Shown here: positions 3,496 to 33,812 of the stretch, in pieces
Layout of the letters: every line of letters starts with the position of its first letter
Position numbering within the stretch: position 1 is the first letter of the stretch
Origin: Deltaproteobacteria bacterium
Lineage (GTDB): Bacteria > UBA10199 > JACPAL01
Assembly: GCA_016180855.1 (NCBI GenBank)
Contig: JACPAL010000010.1
Span: forward strand, 118,988-182,987
Direction of reading: 5' to 3'
DNA length: 64,000 nucleotides
Position numbers and translations under genes: made by a program
The notes under the pieces: generated by a model
Databases searched by the model: none
Seen by the model: the letters and a program-made list of their open reading frames with translations, nothing else
What the model was told of the DNA's origin: nothing

Positions 3496-4020
3496 ATGAA
3501 CACCGAAGAGATTTATCAAAGGCTCGCCCCAAAGTACCCCGATGAGAAAATGGAGCTCACGGCTGGTGCGAAACTGCCGGTCACGGGCGTTCAGACAGGA
3601 GACCCTTTCATCGTCATACCGGTTAACAGGCTTCTCGATCTCATGCAGAGTTTGAAAAACGAGAAATTGTTTTCATTTGATTGTCTCTCCAGCTTGACCG
3701 CGGTTGATCGGCTCAAGGAGGGCCGCTTCGAGGTCGTTTATCATCTATTTTCCTATCAGCATCGACATCGGGTTACGCTCAAGGTCTATCTGCCACGTCA
3801 GGAGGATGCCCATCTTCCGACGGTGGAGGGGCTCTGGTCTTGTGCCAACTGGTTGGAAAGGGAGGTCTTTGATCTTTTCGGAATCCGTTTTGACTCTCAC
3901 ACCGACCTTCGAAGAATTATGCTGCCGGACGACTGGGTAGGGCATCCATTAAGAAAAGACTATAAGGAACAGGAAGATTACCATGGGATCAGCACAACGA
4001 GGCCACCCCTTATTTTATGA
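3496..4020 (+). CDS. nuoC: NADH-quinone oxidoreductase subunit C
   Basis: ERExFDLFGIxF and GHP, the 30-kDa subunit signature. Confidence 0.9.
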
Positions 4021-27927: not shown

Positions 27928-28515
27928 ATGATTAACATGACCGAAAGGGCCCGCGATAAGATCAAATTCTTCATGAAAGACAAGAGCCTCTATGAATGGG
28001 GAGTTCGGGTTCGGTCACAGGGGGGGCAGTTTGGATTTGCCCTGGAGCCGTTCAACAAATCGTCTCCTGGTGATCAGGTCATCGATACGGATGGGATCAA
28101 GATTATTGCCGATGGTCGGACGGCCATGCTCCTTGAGGGGGCGACGGTTGATTTCCTCGATACTGGTGCGGCCGCCGGTTTTACCGTTGAAATAAAGCAA
28201 GGTCCCTCTTCAATGCCGGGGACAGGTGGCCCTGATCTCTCCAACCCGCAGGCCAAGAAGGTCTACGAGATCCTTAATAACGAGATCAATCCTGCCTTGG
28301 CCTCCCACGGGGGTCGTGCCCAGCTGCTCGATGTGAAAGAGAACGTTGTTTATTTAAAATTCGGTGGCGGTTGTCAGGGGTGCGGGATGGTCGATACGAC
28401 CGTCAAGCAGGGGATTGAGGCCCGCATCAAACAGGTCATGCCGGAGATTATTGCGGTTCGTGACGAGACTGATCATGCAGGTGGAAAGAATCCGTACTAT
28501 CGGGCGACGCACTAA
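27928..28515 (+). CDS. nfuA: NfuA-like Fe-S biogenesis protein (degenerate A-type domain + Nfu domain)
   Basis: C-terminal Nfu CxxC (GGGCQGCG). The N-terminal IscA-like domain lacks Cys. Confidence 0.7.
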   Translation: MINMTERARDKIKFFMKDKSLYEWGVRVRSQGGQFGFALEPFNKSSPGDQVIDTDGIKIIADGRTAMLLEGATVDFLDTGAAAGFTVEIKQGPSSMPGTGGPDLSNPQAKKVYEILNNEINPALASHGGRAQLLDVKENVVYLKFGGGCQGCGMVDTTVKQGIEARIKQVMPEIIAVRDETDHAGGKNPYYRATH

Positions 28516-28637: not shown

Positions 28638-29507
28638 ATGAAAGACACAGGCCAAAATTCTAACGGACGTATTGAAGTTTATTCTTATACTAACTACCGG
28701 AAATTATTAAAGGATTACTACGAGTCAGAAAAGAAGAATAACCCAGGCCGTTTTTCGTATCGGAGTTTTGCCAAAAGGGTTGGCCTGGCTACGTCTAACT
28801 TCTTGTACCAAGTGATTACTAGCAGAAAGAATCTTAGCTATTCCAGTACACAACGCGTCGCGCGGGCATTGGGTCTTAATCGTCGTGAGACACATTTTTT
28901 TGAGGCATTAGTACATTTTGATCAGGTTCGTGACCCCCAAGAGAAAATAGGGGCGTTTGAGAAGATGGTTTCGTTTCGCGAATATCGTTCATCGAAAAAG
29001 CTCGACCCGGACCAGTATGATTATTTCTCTAAATGGTACTATCCGGTCATTCGTGAACTGGTTCTGCTCCCTGACTTTCAGGAAAACCCGATCTGGATTT
29101 CAAAAAAACTTTCCTCACTTTTGACCGTTGATGAGGCTCGGGAGGCGCTCGAAAAACTTCAACGGATGAAGATGCTGGTTCGGGAATCGAATGGGCGGCT
29201 TTGTCAGGCAGATCCCAACTTGAAGACGGATGAGGATGTCACTTCGGCGGCCCTCCTGAAGTTTCACCAGTCGATGATGGAGCATGGAATGAAAAGTCTT
29301 CAGCAACCTGCAGAGAATCGTGAAATTTCCGCGCTGACGATGTCCCTTTCAAAAAAGCAGTTTTTTCAGGTGAAGGAGATGGCGCGCCAGTTTCACCGGG
29401 ATGTTCAAAAGCTGATTGCCGAGAATGGGACAGAAACGGTCGAGGGCATCTATCAGCTTAACTTTCAACTGTTTAATTTTGCCACGAGCAGAAGGAGAGA
29501 GCCATGA
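28638..29507 (+). CDS. TIGR02147-family protein (Fibrobacter/Bdellovibrio-type putative HTH regulator)
   Basis: N-terminal YTNYRKLLKDYY motif followed by an HTH. Lower-GC region. Confidence 0.55.
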   Translation: MKDTGQNSNGRIEVYSYTNYRKLLKDYYESEKKNNPGRFSYRSFAKRVGLATSNFLYQVITSRKNLSYSSTQRVARALGLNRRETHFFEALVHFDQVRDPQEKIGAFEKMVSFREYRSSKKLDPDQYDYFSKWYYPVIRELVLLPDFQENPIWISKKLSSLLTVDEAREALEKLQRMKMLVRESNGRLCQADPNLKTDEDVTSAALLKFHQSMMEHGMKSLQQPAENREISALTMSLSKKQFFQVKEMARQFHRDVQKLIAENGTETVEGIYQLNFQLFNFATSRRREP

Positions 29508-30976
29508 AGAGATTTAGCTTATTGTTGGTCGTATCGGTCCTGTCGATGACACTCATAACAGGCTGTACTGATACTGATTCGAGCGAGTCCTCTGGTAATT
29601 CAGGTGGCTCATCGAGTTCCGGCAGTGGCTCATCAAGTTCCGGTGGTGCCTCCTCTGATGGAGCAGAGGGGGAGAATAGTCCAGGGGGAAGTACCTCGGC
29701 CGGCAATCCTGGAGGTGGTGATGTCGAGGGGAGTACTTCAGCGGGGAATCCTCTCTCTTTTAATTTGGCTGGAGCGATCGGGTTAGTTGTTGTTGATTCG
29801 TCCAATAGCAGTTCCCTGCGACTGACGGATAACCAAGGCACCTCTTCCAATCTGAAACGAGTCAACCAGGATAATTCCTTGAGTGATGCGGTGAGCTCGG
29901 GTTCTGTGAACGTCAAGAACTTCATGGTGGCAGCCAACAATCAAGTTTATCTCCTTCTGTCGACCCCTGTTGATTCCTGTATTCTGATTCGGGTCGATGG
30001 TGAAACCAACGAGGCAACTTGCGTTGATTCTTCTATTTCGAATTTTATTTGGAATACGGGGCTTTTCTACAAACATGACCCGATTCAGTTTGATGGTGAA
30101 GGGGCCGTTTATTACATGTTCGGGTCAGCGGACGGGAGACTTGTTCTCAGGAAAAATCTGGCTGGAACGATTACGGATCTGATCAATGACAATATTTCAG
30201 TCGAAGACTTTCTCGTCTTATCGGATGGAACCGTTTTTATTACCGGCAAAACGACATCGACCGCGGCTCTGTGGATCAGAAAAATTTCTCCAGCCAATTC
30301 CTTGGAAAATATTTTTACCTCGGCAACCGCTAATTTCATGAGTCTCTTCCCTGATGGGAACGTCTATATGGGGATTTGGGCGGCTCCGATTTATGGTGTT
30401 GCCAGGTATCTAACCGCCGATAGCCTCCTGGACAATACGAATTGGATGACGCTCGACATCAATGGATTACAAGAACCGAGATACTACGACTGCAACGAAG
30501 TTTCGTCCCGGTATGGTTTTGGGGGGTGGTGTGGCAGTTATGTGAAGGCGATTCATCGAACGATCAATGATCGTGTTTACGCTATTGCCGGAGGCACAGC
30601 GGCCCAGGGAGTCCTCGTGCAATATTATCCGGAGGTTGTAGAACCGGTCACGTCGGTGACTCAGGTGACGGCTTCCCAGAGTGTCCTGACAAGTCTTCTC
30701 TTGGCAGGGGTGGATAGTGAATCAACCAACCGACTGGTTCTTTTTGAGACGACTACGGAAATGGAGACGGATCTTCTGGGTGATGAGGATATTGAGGTCT
30801 ACAATTTAAACTACCTCAATTCGAATAATCATCAAATCGTCATGTTCGACGGACTCCGCTTTTCGGATAACCGTTACGTGCTCTGTCAGGTCGATCTCAC
30901 AAATAATAATGCACTGACCTGCTCTGTGACAGGTACTAGCCGGTTGACCGGTTTTCAACTTTTTAACGAGGAATAA
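29504..30976 (+). CDS. Lipoprotein with a Ser/Gly-rich linker (GSTSAGNP repeat) and a beta-rich C-terminal domain
   Basis: Signal peptide plus lipobox (LITGC). 4-nt overlap (ATGA) with the upstream gene. Confidence 0.65.
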   Translation: MKRFSLLLVVSVLSMTLITGCTDTDSSESSGNSGGSSSSGSGSSSSGGASSDGAEGENSPGGSTSAGNPGGGDVEGSTSAGNPLSFNLAGAIGLVVVDSSNSSSLRLTDNQGTSSNLKRVNQDNSLSDAVSSGSVNVKNFMVAANNQVYLLLSTPVDSCILIRVDGETNEATCVDSSISNFIWNTGLFYKHDPIQFDGEGAVYYMFGSADGRLVLRKNLAGTITDLINDNISVEDFLVLSDGTVFITGKTTSTAALWIRKISPANSLENIFTSATANFMSLFPDGNVYMGIWAAPIYGVARYLTADSLLDNTNWMTLDINGLQEPRYYDCNEVSSRYGFGGWCGSYVKAIHRTINDRVYAIAGGTAAQGVLVQYYPEVVEPVTSVTQVTASQSVLTSLLLAGVDSESTNRLVLFETTTEMETDLLGDEDIEVYNLNYLNSNNHQIVMFDGLRFSDNRYVLCQVDLTNNNALTCSVTGTSRLTGFQLFNEE

Positions 30977-31087
30977 ACTTAAGAAGCCTTTATGTTCATA
31001 TGAAGGGGATGGAGAGCTTGCCACAAATGCTCAACTATCTGTTCCGTATGACTTGGAACACCCCCGCATTCACTTGACGTTTATGTT

Positions 31088-31115
31088 AAATTTGTTTACT
31101 ATAGTTAACAAATTT
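31088..31115. promoter_or_regulatory. Inverted repeat AAATTTGTT-(10 nt)-AACAAATTT in the AT-rich promoter region
   Basis: 9-bp perfect arms upstream of the HTH gene. A closely similar motif sits upstream of the MNT gene at 49913..49934. Confidence 0.45.
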
Positions 31116-31153
31116 ATATAAATATTATGTATTTACAAGTACTTAATAATATA

Positions 31154-31579
31154 ATGAAGTCAAAAAATCTCTCCAGGGCGGATGTGGCGCGTCTGGCGGG
31201 TCTCTCCCCGGCGGCGGTGACGAAGTGGTTTAGGGAGGTCAATCCAGAGGGGCGGGTCAATGTCGAGAGCCGAACTCTTTTTCGACTTGCCTCCAGTCTG
31301 GGGATTCCTGCTGAAAACCTCTTGAAGCCGACCGCAAATCTCGCTCCTTATCAAACTGAATTTTTATGGGACCGTCTCTATCCCTCTATGGAGGATTTTA
31401 TTTTTGCACTTATCCAGGATCGTCCTTCAGCTATTGCTCGTTTGGTTCAACAAGTTGGATTTTATGAGGCCTCGAAAATTATTGGGAAGAAGGCGATTTC
31501 TCTCTTTGATCGATATAGGCGGTTTATTCATCCTGTTCGTAGAAAACAGTTGGAGGTGTTGTGGCCTCTTTATCTCTAG
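31154..31579 (+). CDS. XRE-like HTH protein (putative antitoxin / AbiEi-like regulator)
   Basis: HTH SRADVARLAGLSPAAVTKWF. An alternative start at 31127 lies inside the AT-rich promoter. Overlaps the downstream gene by 19 nt. Confidence 0.6.
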   Translation: MKSKNLSRADVARLAGLSPAAVTKWFREVNPEGRVNVESRTLFRLASSLGIPAENLLKPTANLAPYQTEFLWDRLYPSMEDFIFALIQDRPSAIARLVQQVGFYEASKIIGKKAISLFDRYRRFIHPVRRKQLEVLWPLYL

Positions 31580-32346
31580 AAGAGATTATTCCTCGTCGAA
31601 CTATTTCTAAGAAGACAACGCCTCAACCACTTCAGATCGCCTTAAAGACGATTTTTTCAGAGTCAGGAGAAGGACTTTGGCTTGTGGGAGGAACCGCCCT
31701 CGCCGGTTATTATGCCGAACATAGAAGATCGGACGATTTGGATTTATTTGCCATGGATACCGATGCACACCGATCGGCTGTCTTGGCCGTGAAAAATTTG
31801 AAAAGGCGAGGGGTTGTTTTCAAAAAGGAGACATCGACCCCCAATTTTTACAAGGCTCATTTGGAATTGGAGGCCTATTTCTTTACGGTGGATATTGTTC
31901 TTGATGAGAATCTTCATCGAGTAGGCAGGGCGATCAGAACGGAGGATGGTGTTTTTGTTGTCGATCTACCGACCCTTTTTTCGATGAAGGTTGCCTGTCT
32001 TTTGACCCGCTGCTCCGAGAAAGATTTATATGATTTGGTCTGGTGCTTTGATCGACAGGGTGAGATTGATGTGGGGGAAATAGTCAAAATGGGTCTTCGT
32101 GTCGATGGAGGGATGAACGTCGAAGGCATGCTAGTCAGTCTGCAGGGAGCGACGCTACGGGAAGAGGCGTGTCATTTCCTTCTGGACAACTCAAAAGCCA
32201 ATGTCCGTACGGCTTATCAGCAGATTGTTGGTCTTCAAAAAAAACTGATTCAATTACTTCTTGATTATGAAAAGCGTAAACCGCTCTCTCCCGAGACAAA
32301 AGCGCTATTGCAGGCAGTTCGTGATCAAAAGAGACTAAAAAAATGA
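31561..32346 (+). CDS. AbiEii/AbiGii-family nucleotidyltransferase toxin-like protein (DUF1814-like)
   Basis: N-terminal LVGGTALAGYY motif, characteristic of AbiEii, followed by ...DLDLF (DxD). Confidence 0.6.
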   Translation: MASLSLEEIIPRRTISKKTTPQPLQIALKTIFSESGEGLWLVGGTALAGYYAEHRRSDDLDLFAMDTDAHRSAVLAVKNLKRRGVVFKKETSTPNFYKAHLELEAYFFTVDIVLDENLHRVGRAIRTEDGVFVVDLPTLFSMKVACLLTRCSEKDLYDLVWCFDRQGEIDVGEIVKMGLRVDGGMNVEGMLVSLQGATLREEACHFLLDNSKANVRTAYQQIVGLQKKLIQLLLDYEKRKPLSPETKALLQAVRDQKRLKK

Positions 32347-32793
32347 AAGATTCCGTTTGTCAACCTCGGCCTGGAGGGCTTGTTCTCCGGTACTCATGAC
32401 CCAGTTATGATTCCAGCGAAAGAGGGATTTTAAAAAAGGGGAAAGCCACCTCACCAACGGTTTTTCAGCCCGAACATTCCAGTGAAATTCAATCTCCGCA
32501 TGCGGACCGTGTTGAGAAAGGGTCCATCGACCTGTGCCGACCAGTTCGCCAGAGGCGTGTATTTCCAACTCCCAAGGGGCATTTTCCCGAACCAGTTCGG
32601 TTATAAACTGCAATGTATAGGGAAGTTTCGCTCGAACTTTTGAGCTCACTTTTTTATCTGAAAGTTGTTTTGACTCCTGATACGCGGGTCGCCACCATCG
32701 GGCGTAATGGGCCCCATCCCTCAGGATGGAAAAAACCTCATGGCAATTACCTCGAATTCGCCAATGGGTCACAAACCGATAGTCGTGATTCAT
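32335..32793 (-). CDS. SRPBCC/polyketide cyclase-like (START/Bet v1 fold) protein
   Basis: 152 aa with a Polyketide_cyc2-like pattern. Low certainty. Confidence 0.5.
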   Translation of the reverse strand: MNHDYRFVTHWRIRGNCHEVFSILRDGAHYARWWRPAYQESKQLSDKKVSSKVRAKLPYTLQFITELVRENAPWELEIHASGELVGTGRWTLSQHGPHAEIEFHWNVRAEKPLVRWLSPFLKSLFRWNHNWVMSTGEQALQAEVDKRNLSFF

Positions 32794-33812
32794 TAAGTTA
32801 ACCCGATTGTCTCCTCAAGCCCGCACATCAAATTCATATTTTGCACCGCCTGACCCGACGCCCCTTTGATAAGGTTATCGATGGCGGTGACCACAATGAT
32901 CTGGCCCGTTGGGGAATGATGAAGGGCGCCGATGTGGCAGGCATTCGTTCCGGTCACCTCTTTGGTTTTTGGAAAATAACCTTCCGGGAGAACCTTCACA
33001 AACGGCTCGTTTTGATAATAGGATTGGAAGGCCTTCAGGATCTTTTGGGTATCCGTTTTGCTCGTTGGTTTGAGATAAATGGTGGAAAGAATTCCCCGAT
33101 GCATCGGGATGAGATGCGGGGTAAAAACAACTGAAACAGGTTTTTTGGCGGCGAGAGAGAGTTCCTGCTCGATTTCTGGTGTGTGGCGATGTTTTCCAAT
33201 GTTATAGGCATGGACCGACTCATTCGCCTCAAATTTTAGTTTTTCCTCAACCGTTTTTCTGCCCGCGCCACTCATCCCCGATTTAGAGTCGATCACAATG
33301 CCATCCGGGCTGACGATCCCTTCCTTCAGGAGGGGAAGAATGCCCAAAAGGGCTCCCGTTGGATAGCAACCGGGATTGCCAACAAGGGAGGCGTTGCGAA
33401 TCTCCTCCCGATGGAACTCCGGGAGTCCGTACACAGATTTCTTAAGCAAGTCGGGAGTGGAATGTTTTTGGTACCATTTTTCATAAATGGAAACATCGTT
33501 AAATCGAAAGTCGGCGGAGAGGTCGACAACCTTGAGACCGTTTTTAATCCAGAGTGGGATGTGGCTCATCGCCTCTTTGTGGGGGAGGCAACTAAAAACG
33601 AAAAGACCATTGCGGCTGATCGGGTCATCCTGAAGCGGTTCGAAGGCAAGGTCGATTTTTAGGTCGGGGAAAATAGCAGAGATCTTTTTCCCCGCAAGAC
33701 TCTGCGAGGTCGCCTTGATAATCTCAACATCCGGATGATGGGAGAGGATCCGCAGGAGCTCCTCCCCGGTATATCCGGTCGCTCCGACGATTCCGACACG
33801 GATTTTTTTCAC
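32793..33812 (-). CDS. argC: N-acetyl-gamma-glutamyl-phosphate reductase
   Basis: VGATGYTG Rossmann N-terminus and the catalytic Cys region (SGMSGAG). Confidence 0.9.
   Translation of the reverse strand: MKKIRVGIVGATGYTGEELLRILSHHPDVEIIKATSQSLAGKKISAIFPDLKIDLAFEPLQDDPISRNGLFVFSCLPHKEAMSHIPLWIKNGLKVVDLSADFRFNDVSIYEKWYQKHSTPDLLKKSVYGLPEFHREEIRNASLVGNPGCYPTGALLGILPLLKEGIVSPDGIVIDSKSGMSGAGRKTVEEKLKFEANESVHAYNIGKHRHTPEIEQELSLAAKKPVSVVFTPHLIPMHRGILSTIYLKPTSKTDTQKILKAFQSYYQNEPFVKVLPEGYFPKTKEVTGTNACHIGALHHSPTGQIIVVTAIDNLIKGASGQAVQNMNLMCGLEETIGLT

Follow-up and report, generated by a model that had tools for sequence, protein, structure and literature searches.

Nucleotidyltransferase toxins of the DUF1814 family (AbiEii and MenT) are widespread, block translation by altering tRNA ends, and matter both for the physiology of Mycobacterium tuberculosis and for phage defense. 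In the MenAT systems of this species, the four MenT toxins are matched by antitoxins of three families. MenT1, MenT3, and MenT4 elongate the acceptor ends of tRNAs and thus halt translation (PMC7450476; PMC10435456; PMC11541572), and AbiEii is reported to inhibit translation and to catalyze pyrimidine-specific transfer (bioRxiv 10.64898/2026.01.19.700257). Current work argues that very different antitoxins silence DUF1814 toxins through the same active-site auto-phosphorylation. MenA1, MenA3, and AbiEi are mutually unrelated, and each is reported to induce toxin auto-phosphorylation at a serine or threonine two residues before the DxD motif (PMC11375011; bioRxiv 10.64898/2026.01.19.700257).

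Here, we analyzed a 64,000-nt stretch of contig JACPAL010000010.1 (positions 118,988 to 182,987; assembly GCA_016180855.1, Deltaproteobacteria bacterium), hereafter the window, in which a DUF1814 nucleotidyltransferase gene directly follows a gene for an XRE-type helix-turn-helix (HTH) protein (31127-32346). A first-pass annotation of the window had labeled the enzyme GTP-specific and the pair type IV, and both labels are out of date. GTP binding was reported in 2014 (PMC3985639), while a 2026 preprint reports pyrimidine specificity for AbiEii, and MenT3 uses CTP. For AbiE and MenAT, type IV has been superseded by antitoxin-induced toxin auto-phosphorylation, or type VII (PMC11375011; bioRxiv 10.64898/2026.01.19.700257).

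The locus is probably a functional, autoregulated chromosomal two-gene toxin-antitoxin (TA) module; by homology, it is most likely an ordinary TA of a variant type. By analogy, the module would work like MenAT and AbiE, where antitoxin diversity is already established. Our proposals for the specific toxin target and the chemistry of neutralization are more tentative, with less than an even chance of being correct.

Organization of the gene pair

The putative antitoxin/autorepressor gene, which encodes an XRE-type HTH domain and a C-terminal domain (CTD), occupies positions 31127-31579 of the forward strand (ATG start, 150 aa), and the putative toxin gene, which encodes the AbiEii/MenT-family nucleotidyltransferase, occupies 31561-32346 of the same strand (GTG start, 261 aa). 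In the six-frame list of open reading frames (ORFs), the two share the 19 nt at 31561-31579, the same overlap that the first-pass annotation had given. Its length of 141 aa for the HTH protein needs correction to 150 aa. The shorter version begins at an internal ATG (31154), as does the NCBI call for the identical protein P0121. We consider 31127 the better start because the N-terminus MYLQxLKNLM is kept in homologs down to approximately 55% identity, the codons ATG TAT are conserved in the DNA (with AT-rich non-coding DNA upstream), and the N-terminal residues of the 150-aa reading form HTH helix 1 in the AlphaFold2 (AF2) model.

A GGAGG ribosome-binding site for the toxin gene, read from the sequence, lies within the antitoxin coding sequence (31552-31556, forward strand), 4 nt ahead of the GTG at 31561. 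The HTH gene has no Shine-Dalgarno sequence ahead of its start. Overlapping genes are found throughout the family, in keeping with translational coupling. A terminator-like match at 31552-31569 was not taken as a terminator; it falls inside the gene overlap, and such matches are as frequent as expected from shuffled sequences.

Putative toxin and its active site

The 261-aa protein matches the Pfam family AbiEii (PF08843) with 38.9 bits (cut-off 22.5; E = 1.2e-9) over residues 31-171, in agreement with the AbiEii/DUF1814 identity proposed earlier, for which a profile search had been suggested. It also matches 16 AbiEii models of PADLOC (best PDLC02307, E = 1.5e-12), and it has no NCBIfam model and no PHROG match. 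The exact sequence is present in NCBI as [quoted passage not shown] (MAG, metagenome-assembled genome).

Motifs I-IV of the family were defined, and shown to be essential to toxicity, in Streptococcus agalactiae AbiEii (PMC3985639; Dy et al., 2014). All four are present on the forward strand of the window, and their key residues are invariant in an alignment of 31 homologs (44-72% identity). Motif I, hG[GS] (V42-G43-G44), lies at 31687-31692 with G43 and G44 invariant; it opens the GGTAL motif that had been recognized earlier (residues 43-47; 31687-31701). The motif II region (R55-R-S57-D-D59-L-D61; 31723-31743) comprises the metal-binding DxD and a serine two residues ahead of it, and R55, S57, D59, and D61 are invariant. 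Motif III (K143xxAxxxR150; 31987-32010) has both K143 and R150 invariant and the same seven-residue spacing as K173/R180 of AbiEii. Motif IV, +DxxD (K154-D155-L-Y-D158; 32020-32034), has K154, D155, and D158 invariant and aligns to RDLFDL of Helicobacter pylori JHP933 in the profile match to structure 4ok0. In terms of residue presence only, Ser57 (S57-D58-D59-L60-D61) occupies the phospho-acceptor position of MenT1 T39, MenT3 S78, and AbiEii T65; the reference layouts are T39-R40-D41-x-D43 in MenT1 and T65 ahead of D67/D69 in AbiEii.

The AF2 models of both proteins are confident (predicted local distance difference test, pLDDT, of 92-93; 92 for the HTH protein). The predicted fold of the 261-aa protein is that of the family, namely, a Pol-beta-like nucleotidyltransferase domain with a helical C-terminal domain, as in MenT1/3/4 and JHP933. 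The solved toxins nearest to this model are MenT4, JHP933, MenT3, and MenT1. No match was obtained when the toxin was searched as a single sequence against PDB sequences, and its profile reached JHP933 weakly (4ok0, E = 0.01) through motifs I, II, and IV. JHP933 (4ok0/4o8s) is the only solved structure reached by the sequence profile and also the top Foldseek match, but the identity is 15-16% and the TM-score 0.43-0.51. A better-scoring profile match to the designed TIM barrel 7mcd was discarded, as it consisted of four sub-threshold repeats of one 28-residue stretch. Judged by all these sequence and fold features, the 261-aa protein is a member of the DUF1814 AbiEii/MenT family with an intact active site.

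Both ORFs are full-length relative to all homologs, and identical proteins occur in independent assemblies. Together with the intact catalytic residues and the high pLDDT of the models, these observations effectively refute the explanation that the locus is a decayed or inactive TA remnant, or consists of chance ORFs, and we give it almost no chance of being correct. We found nothing in its favor; the pair is weak only in that its toxin gene starts with GTG and no Shine-Dalgarno sequence precedes its antitoxin gene.

A two-domain XRE-type partner

The 150-aa protein (homologs P0121-P0142) scores above the Pfam cut-offs for HTH_3 (27.2 bits; cut-off 23) and HTH_26 (24.1 bits). With the HTH_3 match and a five-helix fold in the AF2 model, it has the characteristics of an XRE/Cro-C1 protein, and its DNA-binding domain comprises residues 1-66 (31127-31324, forward strand). 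At E <= 1, no AbiEi family match was found for it in Pfam or PADLOC. The earlier description of the partner as XRE-type rather than AbiEi (COG5340) thus stands, as does that of a "variant pairing", given the missing AbiEi profile match. The description of the HTH protein as short does not, because at 150 aa it carries a second, uncharacterized domain.

This second domain is helical, comprises residues 72-150 (31340-31576, forward strand), and presumably binds and neutralizes the toxin. It is approximately 80 aa long and contains the motifs FLWDRLYP and PVRRKQLEVLWPLY, the latter being its near-invariant tail. Invariant residues are W81, D82, L84, and Y85 (in FLWDRLYP), R105, G111, G120, and F127. 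No Pfam family was found for the CTD in any of the 22 members scanned. When searched alone against 1.84 billion representative proteins, it gave 112 matches, nearly all of them proteins of 140-175 aa that carry it C-terminally; a few matches to long repetitive proteins were regarded as spurious multi-stretch alignments. The CTD thus appears to occur essentially only in the HTH+CTD architecture of 140-175 aa.

The locus shares several properties with AbiE of Lactococcus lactis and S. agalactiae. In both, the toxin belongs to PF08843 and has the same four motifs, the antitoxin combines an N-terminal DNA-binding domain with a C-terminal domain, and the operon is bicistronic with overlapping genes, the antitoxin gene first, and an inverted-repeat operator in the promoter. 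The locus therefore has the operon structure and promoter repeats by which AbiE is recognized. The differences lie in the components. The window antitoxin has a five-helix XRE/Cro HTH and an all-helical CTD of approximately 80 aa, whereas AbiEi is a winged-HTH protein of COG5340, approximately 195 aa long, with an alpha/beta CTD. The window operator is a single 6-N6-6 palindrome, whereas abiE has two repeats of 11-23 bp that are 27 bp apart. Moreover, the Pfam profile covers only residues 31-171 of the window toxin. By its sequence profiles, the locus is not an AbiE system, as the test for the AbiEi antitoxin that defines such systems was negative. Annotation tools that demand AbiEi will miss AbiEii-type loci of this kind.

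Compared with MenT1, MenT3 (TglT), and MenT4 of M. tuberculosis, the window toxin has an identity of 9-19%, and the window antitoxin has no relationship to MenA1, a helix protein of 7.4 kDa, or to MenA3 and MenA4 (COG5340). The hosts also differ, as those of the window type are uncultured environmental bacteria. Another comparison is with the Xre-RES (ParST) and HigBA type II systems, which likewise pair an XRE-family HTH antitoxin that has a toxin-binding domain with a toxin and have autorepression from a palindromic operator, the antitoxin role and the autorepression being putative in our case. Their toxins are instead a RES NAD+ glycohydrolase or a RelE-like RNase. In addition, the window HTH protein is sub-threshold for the Xre-like-HTH model of Pfam (15.1 bits; cut-off 25.8), and no DUF2384-type CTD was detected in it. 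The pairing of AbiEii with an XRE protein is not unprecedented, since abiEii-HTH_XRE and abiEii-higA modules were counted in silico in Pseudomonas aeruginosa genomes and left unclassified (PMC9424990); the pairing there is the same at the level of domain labels.

Linkage and distribution of the pair

Relatives of the toxin were collected by a pattern-based scan of 185,579 species genomes (one genome per species), which yielded at least 125 sites; 80 loci were kept from the 125 relatives. By the labels of the MAG records, the loci belong to Deltaproteobacteria, Bdellovibrionota/Oligoflexia, Acidobacteriota, Elusimicrobia, Binatia, Spirochaetia, Planctomycetota, Verrucomicrobia, Gemmatimonadota, Nitrospira, and others. 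The HTH+CTD gene is directly upstream of the toxin gene and on the same strand in all of 85 loci, and in 88/88 when the window and later loci are included. Across these 88 loci the genes overlap by 16-67 nt, most commonly by 34 nt. On this pattern of linkage, we regard the HTH+CTD and toxin genes as an obligate pair and not a chance neighborhood.

Once the pair was masked, unique neighborhoods, mostly among housekeeping genes, remained in 57 of 84 loci. These contexts and the small number of sites would suit a selfish module. Flanking genes that seemed to be shared by 31 loci across phyla were rejected, as they proved to be shadow ORFs, either antisense to the pair or in another frame. A conserved third gene was likewise rejected after masking, and the only leftover was an AAA_14/DUF4143-like ATPase near the pair in seven loci.

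Upstream control region

An operator-like palindrome, which the first-pass annotation had already pointed out, lies directly ahead of the antitoxin gene at 31087-31116. Its arms (TAAATTTGTTTACTA/TAGTTAACAAATTTA; 31087-31101 and 31102-31116) are 15 nt each, 93% complementary, and without a spacer, and it has a z score of 9.6 against shuffles of the 120 nt upstream. The core, TGTTTA-N6-TTAACA (31093-31110), has the same N6 architecture as the family-wide TGTCAA-N6-TTGACA. This family sequence is perfect in 36 of 78 distinct upstream regions and is found with at most one mismatch in 55 of the 78, compared with 3 of 780 shuffles. Both the z score and the conservation across the family bear the palindrome out. 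The conservation is the strongest comparative evidence for autoregulation, and the HTH protein is the probable ligand of this DNA.

Two promoter arrangements are predicted, from consensus spacing alone, as are the start site and leader. In the window, a consensus scan found TTGACG-17 nt-TACTAT on the forward strand, with TTGACG as the -35-like hexamer (31074-31079) and TACTAT, within the operator, as the -10-like hexamer (31097-31102) of the promoter predicted for the pair. Transcription is predicted to start near 31109, which would give a leader of approximately 18 nt without a Shine-Dalgarno sequence. TTGA(C) at an equal distance is kept in five of seven close relatives. The right half-site TTAACA was also considered as the -35 of the window and rejected, as there is no TANNNT 16-18 nt downstream, and TTGACG-17-TACTAT was preferred. 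In most loci of the family, the TTGACA ends 28-32 nt ahead of the start codon, and a TANNNT follows it by 16-18 nt in 29 of 48 loci, whereas a control spacing gave 1 of 48. Only 6-7 nt separate the TANNNT from the start codon in 15 of these 29 loci. From this spacing, we predict that the right half-site acts as the -35 in most lineages and that the antitoxin mRNA lacks a leader. In those lineages, the -35 of the leaderless antitoxin mRNA is predicted to be occluded by the product of that same mRNA. Lineages in which the operator serves as the -35 are found among loci L014-L085, e.g., L022 (about 3937-4000), L060, L078, and L079.

The clade that includes the window (L001, L003, L005, L007, L008, and L012) has a related operator, TTGTTTAC-TATA-GTTAACAA, in which TTAACA is invariant. 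Its operator is best read as having moved onto the -10, with a separate -35 located 17 nt upstream. In either arrangement, a dimeric XRE protein bound at the operator would block RNA polymerase.

Genomic context and role of the pair

The genes of this region of the window are, in order, cobA-hemD, nfuA, a TIGR02147 gene, a 490-aa lipoprotein-like gene, the pair, an SRPBCC gene, argC, rpsI, rplM, and an Fe-S protein gene. The positions given earlier for the outer neighbors, nfuA near 28.5 kb and argC near 32.8 kb, were confirmed (nfuA, encoding a NifU/Fe-S_biosyn protein, 27928-28515; argC, identified via its L001 homolog with the Semialdhyde_dh families, 32793-33812). The lower GC content of the pair was confirmed as well, although the difference is modest: 0.457 compared with a window mean of 0.507 (standard deviation 0.026 in 1220-nt windows; 4.5th percentile). 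The GC content at third codon positions (GC3) is 0.43-0.45 in the pair and 0.53-0.61 in nfuA, argC, rpsI, and rplM, and the intergenic region 30977-31126 has a GC content of 0.347. A foreign origin and weak expression would each fit the lower GC3.

The nearest relative, L001 (GCA_016180845.1), has a toxin with 71% and an antitoxin with 74% identity. Its gene order is hemC, cobA-hemD, two unrelated genes, the pair, argC, rpsI, rplM, and the same 648-aa Fe-S protein as in the window. The two genomes differ in what occupies the slot upstream of the pair and in the SRPBCC gene inserted downstream of it. The first-pass annotation had drawn a single islet from nfuA to argC, and this picture does not hold, as the pair is syntenic beside argC-rpsI-rplM in L001 while the upstream genes are wholly different. 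Since the flanks at this shared position are approximately 60% identical, the pair is not a recent islet. We infer that it adjoined argC before the two genomes diverged.

The proteins flanking the pair are 60-76% identical between the window and L001, and the pair (71-74%) exceeds hemD, argC, and rplM. Toxin identity is also above that of the flanks in three Binatia genomes, in L064/L077 (Spirochaetia), and in L058/L066. Toxin versus mean flank identities are 71 vs. 61% for window/L001, 72 vs. 52% for L064/L077, and 90-94 vs. 77-80% for L070/L073/L075; in the Spirochaetia trio L080/L081/L085, the toxin is similar to the flanks (87-92 vs. 82-89%). The location of the pair elsewhere, between bamA and skp in L003 and between folK and an aminotransferase gene in L005, completes a picture in which the module would move rarely, land among housekeeping genes, and then be retained. 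TA loci are not usually conserved above their flanks, and the pair may therefore have a role that benefits the host.

Two other explanations of the pair were weighed. The pair might be a domesticated non-toxic enzyme that modifies RNA or a small molecule under its own XRE repressor, with the CTD sensing a ligand or the state of the enzyme. The kept position beside argC-rpsI-rplM and the conservation above flanking genes, seen in two other lineages besides that of the window, would be expected of such an enzyme, and DUF1814 genes without linked antitoxins were noted by Dy et al. We nevertheless find this quite improbable. The linked and overlapping genes of all 88 loci, together with a CTD found essentially nowhere else, are the signature of an obligate protein pair; the distribution among genomes is very patchy, and 57 of 84 loci have differing contexts; every residue on which AbiEii toxicity depends is invariant; and the GC3 is below that of the neighbors.

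Alternatively, the pair might be primarily an abortive-infection (AbiE-like) anti-phage system, in which infection releases or activates the toxin and translation shuts down, an explanation that differs from a TA module in role only. The matches of the toxin to the PADLOC AbiEii models agree with it, AbiE of L. lactis and the DUF1814 systems SanaTA and RlegTA protect against phage, and additional TA genes are close to the pair in the relatives L005 (ParE) and L001 (PemK). Several observations make an anti-phage role unlikely, however. Without an AbiEi partner, the locus is outside the definition of the AbiE system, and even the AbiE of S. agalactiae did not protect against 32 coliphages. Judged by called genes and Pfam matches, the neighbors in the window, L001, L003, and L005 are housekeeping genes (hemD, argC, and rpsI; bamA and skp; folK) and the toxin lacks a PHROG match. 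Furthermore, the pair has been kept by vertical descent, and its conservation exceeds that of its neighbors.

Mechanism and wider relevance

For the TA module that we favor, the following mechanism can be proposed. The free nucleotidyltransferase would add nucleotides to tRNA 3' acceptor ends and translation would stop, by analogy with MenT1, MenT3, MenT4, and AbiEii. The HTH domain, presumably dimeric, would bind TGTTTA-N6-TTAACA over the -10 and the predicted start and repress the operon. The CTD would bind the toxin and neutralize it either by sequestration or, as in MenAT and AbiE, by induced auto-phosphorylation of Ser57. This residue, beside the D59xD61 metal site, is the candidate target, and because the serine ahead of the DxD is invariant, a phosphorylation switch may be available to the window protein. 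The 19-nt overlap and the internal GGAGG would couple translation of the toxin to that of the antitoxin. Upon antitoxin loss, active toxin would be freed or re-expressed, and tRNA 3' ends would be nucleotidylated.

Some observations weigh against this reading. Identities to solved toxins of 9-19% and Foldseek TM-scores of 0.43-0.53 mean that the substrate could differ from theirs, and the match to PF08843 is confined to residues 31-171. The proposed binding of the toxin by the CTD derives from gene linkage alone. Lastly, the comparisons between genomes indicate that the pair is less mobile-like than most TA loci, being syntenic and better conserved than its neighbors.

We found no publication on this subfamily, its CTD, or its operator in a literature search that left most subscription journals outside its scope. 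A broader proposal, to which we give somewhat less than an even chance, is that the XRE-HTH+CTD proteins are an undescribed antitoxin family for one clade of DUF1814 toxins. In this proposal, the CTD neutralizes the toxin, possibly via Ser57 auto-phosphorylation; one operator is kept across at least eight phyla and doubles as the -35 for a leaderless mRNA in most lineages; and the vertical retention hints at a host-beneficial role. The all-helical CTD could then be unrelated to AbiEi, MenA1, and MenA3. If the proposal is true, the type VII rule of induced auto-phosphorylation would extend to a fourth unrelated antitoxin fold. A compact, well-conserved subfamily with another antitoxin fold, a fully conserved acceptor serine, and a sharp operator would be a clean test of that generalization, and it would also offer a simple autoregulated module whose operator is known and whose design is leaderless. 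Otherwise, the locus is a TA module of an uncultured bacterium that homology could have predicted; it leaves the general picture unchanged and holds nothing surprising to specialists.

Other genes near the pair

Upstream of the pair in the window, the TIGR02147/DUF4423-family gene (215 bits; cut-off 50) overlaps the 490-aa gene by 4 nt, and the two span 28638-30976. The 490-aa gene product has a signal/lipobox-like N-terminus and a Ser/Gly-rich linker, with no Pfam match. Both genes and nfuA are missing from the corresponding slot of L001, making this a variable slot beside a stable pair. Between the toxin gene and argC is an SRPBCC/Polyketide_cyc2-like gene (27.9 bits; cut-off 27.4; 32335-32793, reverse strand). 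It is convergent with the toxin gene, overlaps it by 12 nt, and abuts the argC start. L001 lacks this gene, and its toxin gene and argC overlap directly.

A P-loop (GGPRQVGKTT) protein of approximately 390 aa is encoded within 4 kb of the pair in L026, L034, L056, L058, L060, L074, and L078, which are labeled Bdellovibrionota/Elusimicrobia, and its orientation is variable. It presumably resembles AAA_14/DUF4143 ATPases. The gene could be a linked accessory gene or merely another mobile gene. Other TA genes within a few kb of the pair are a PemK_toxin gene with a small upstream gene in L001 (12131-12723) and a ParE_toxin gene with a 75-aa partner in L005 (3414-3899).

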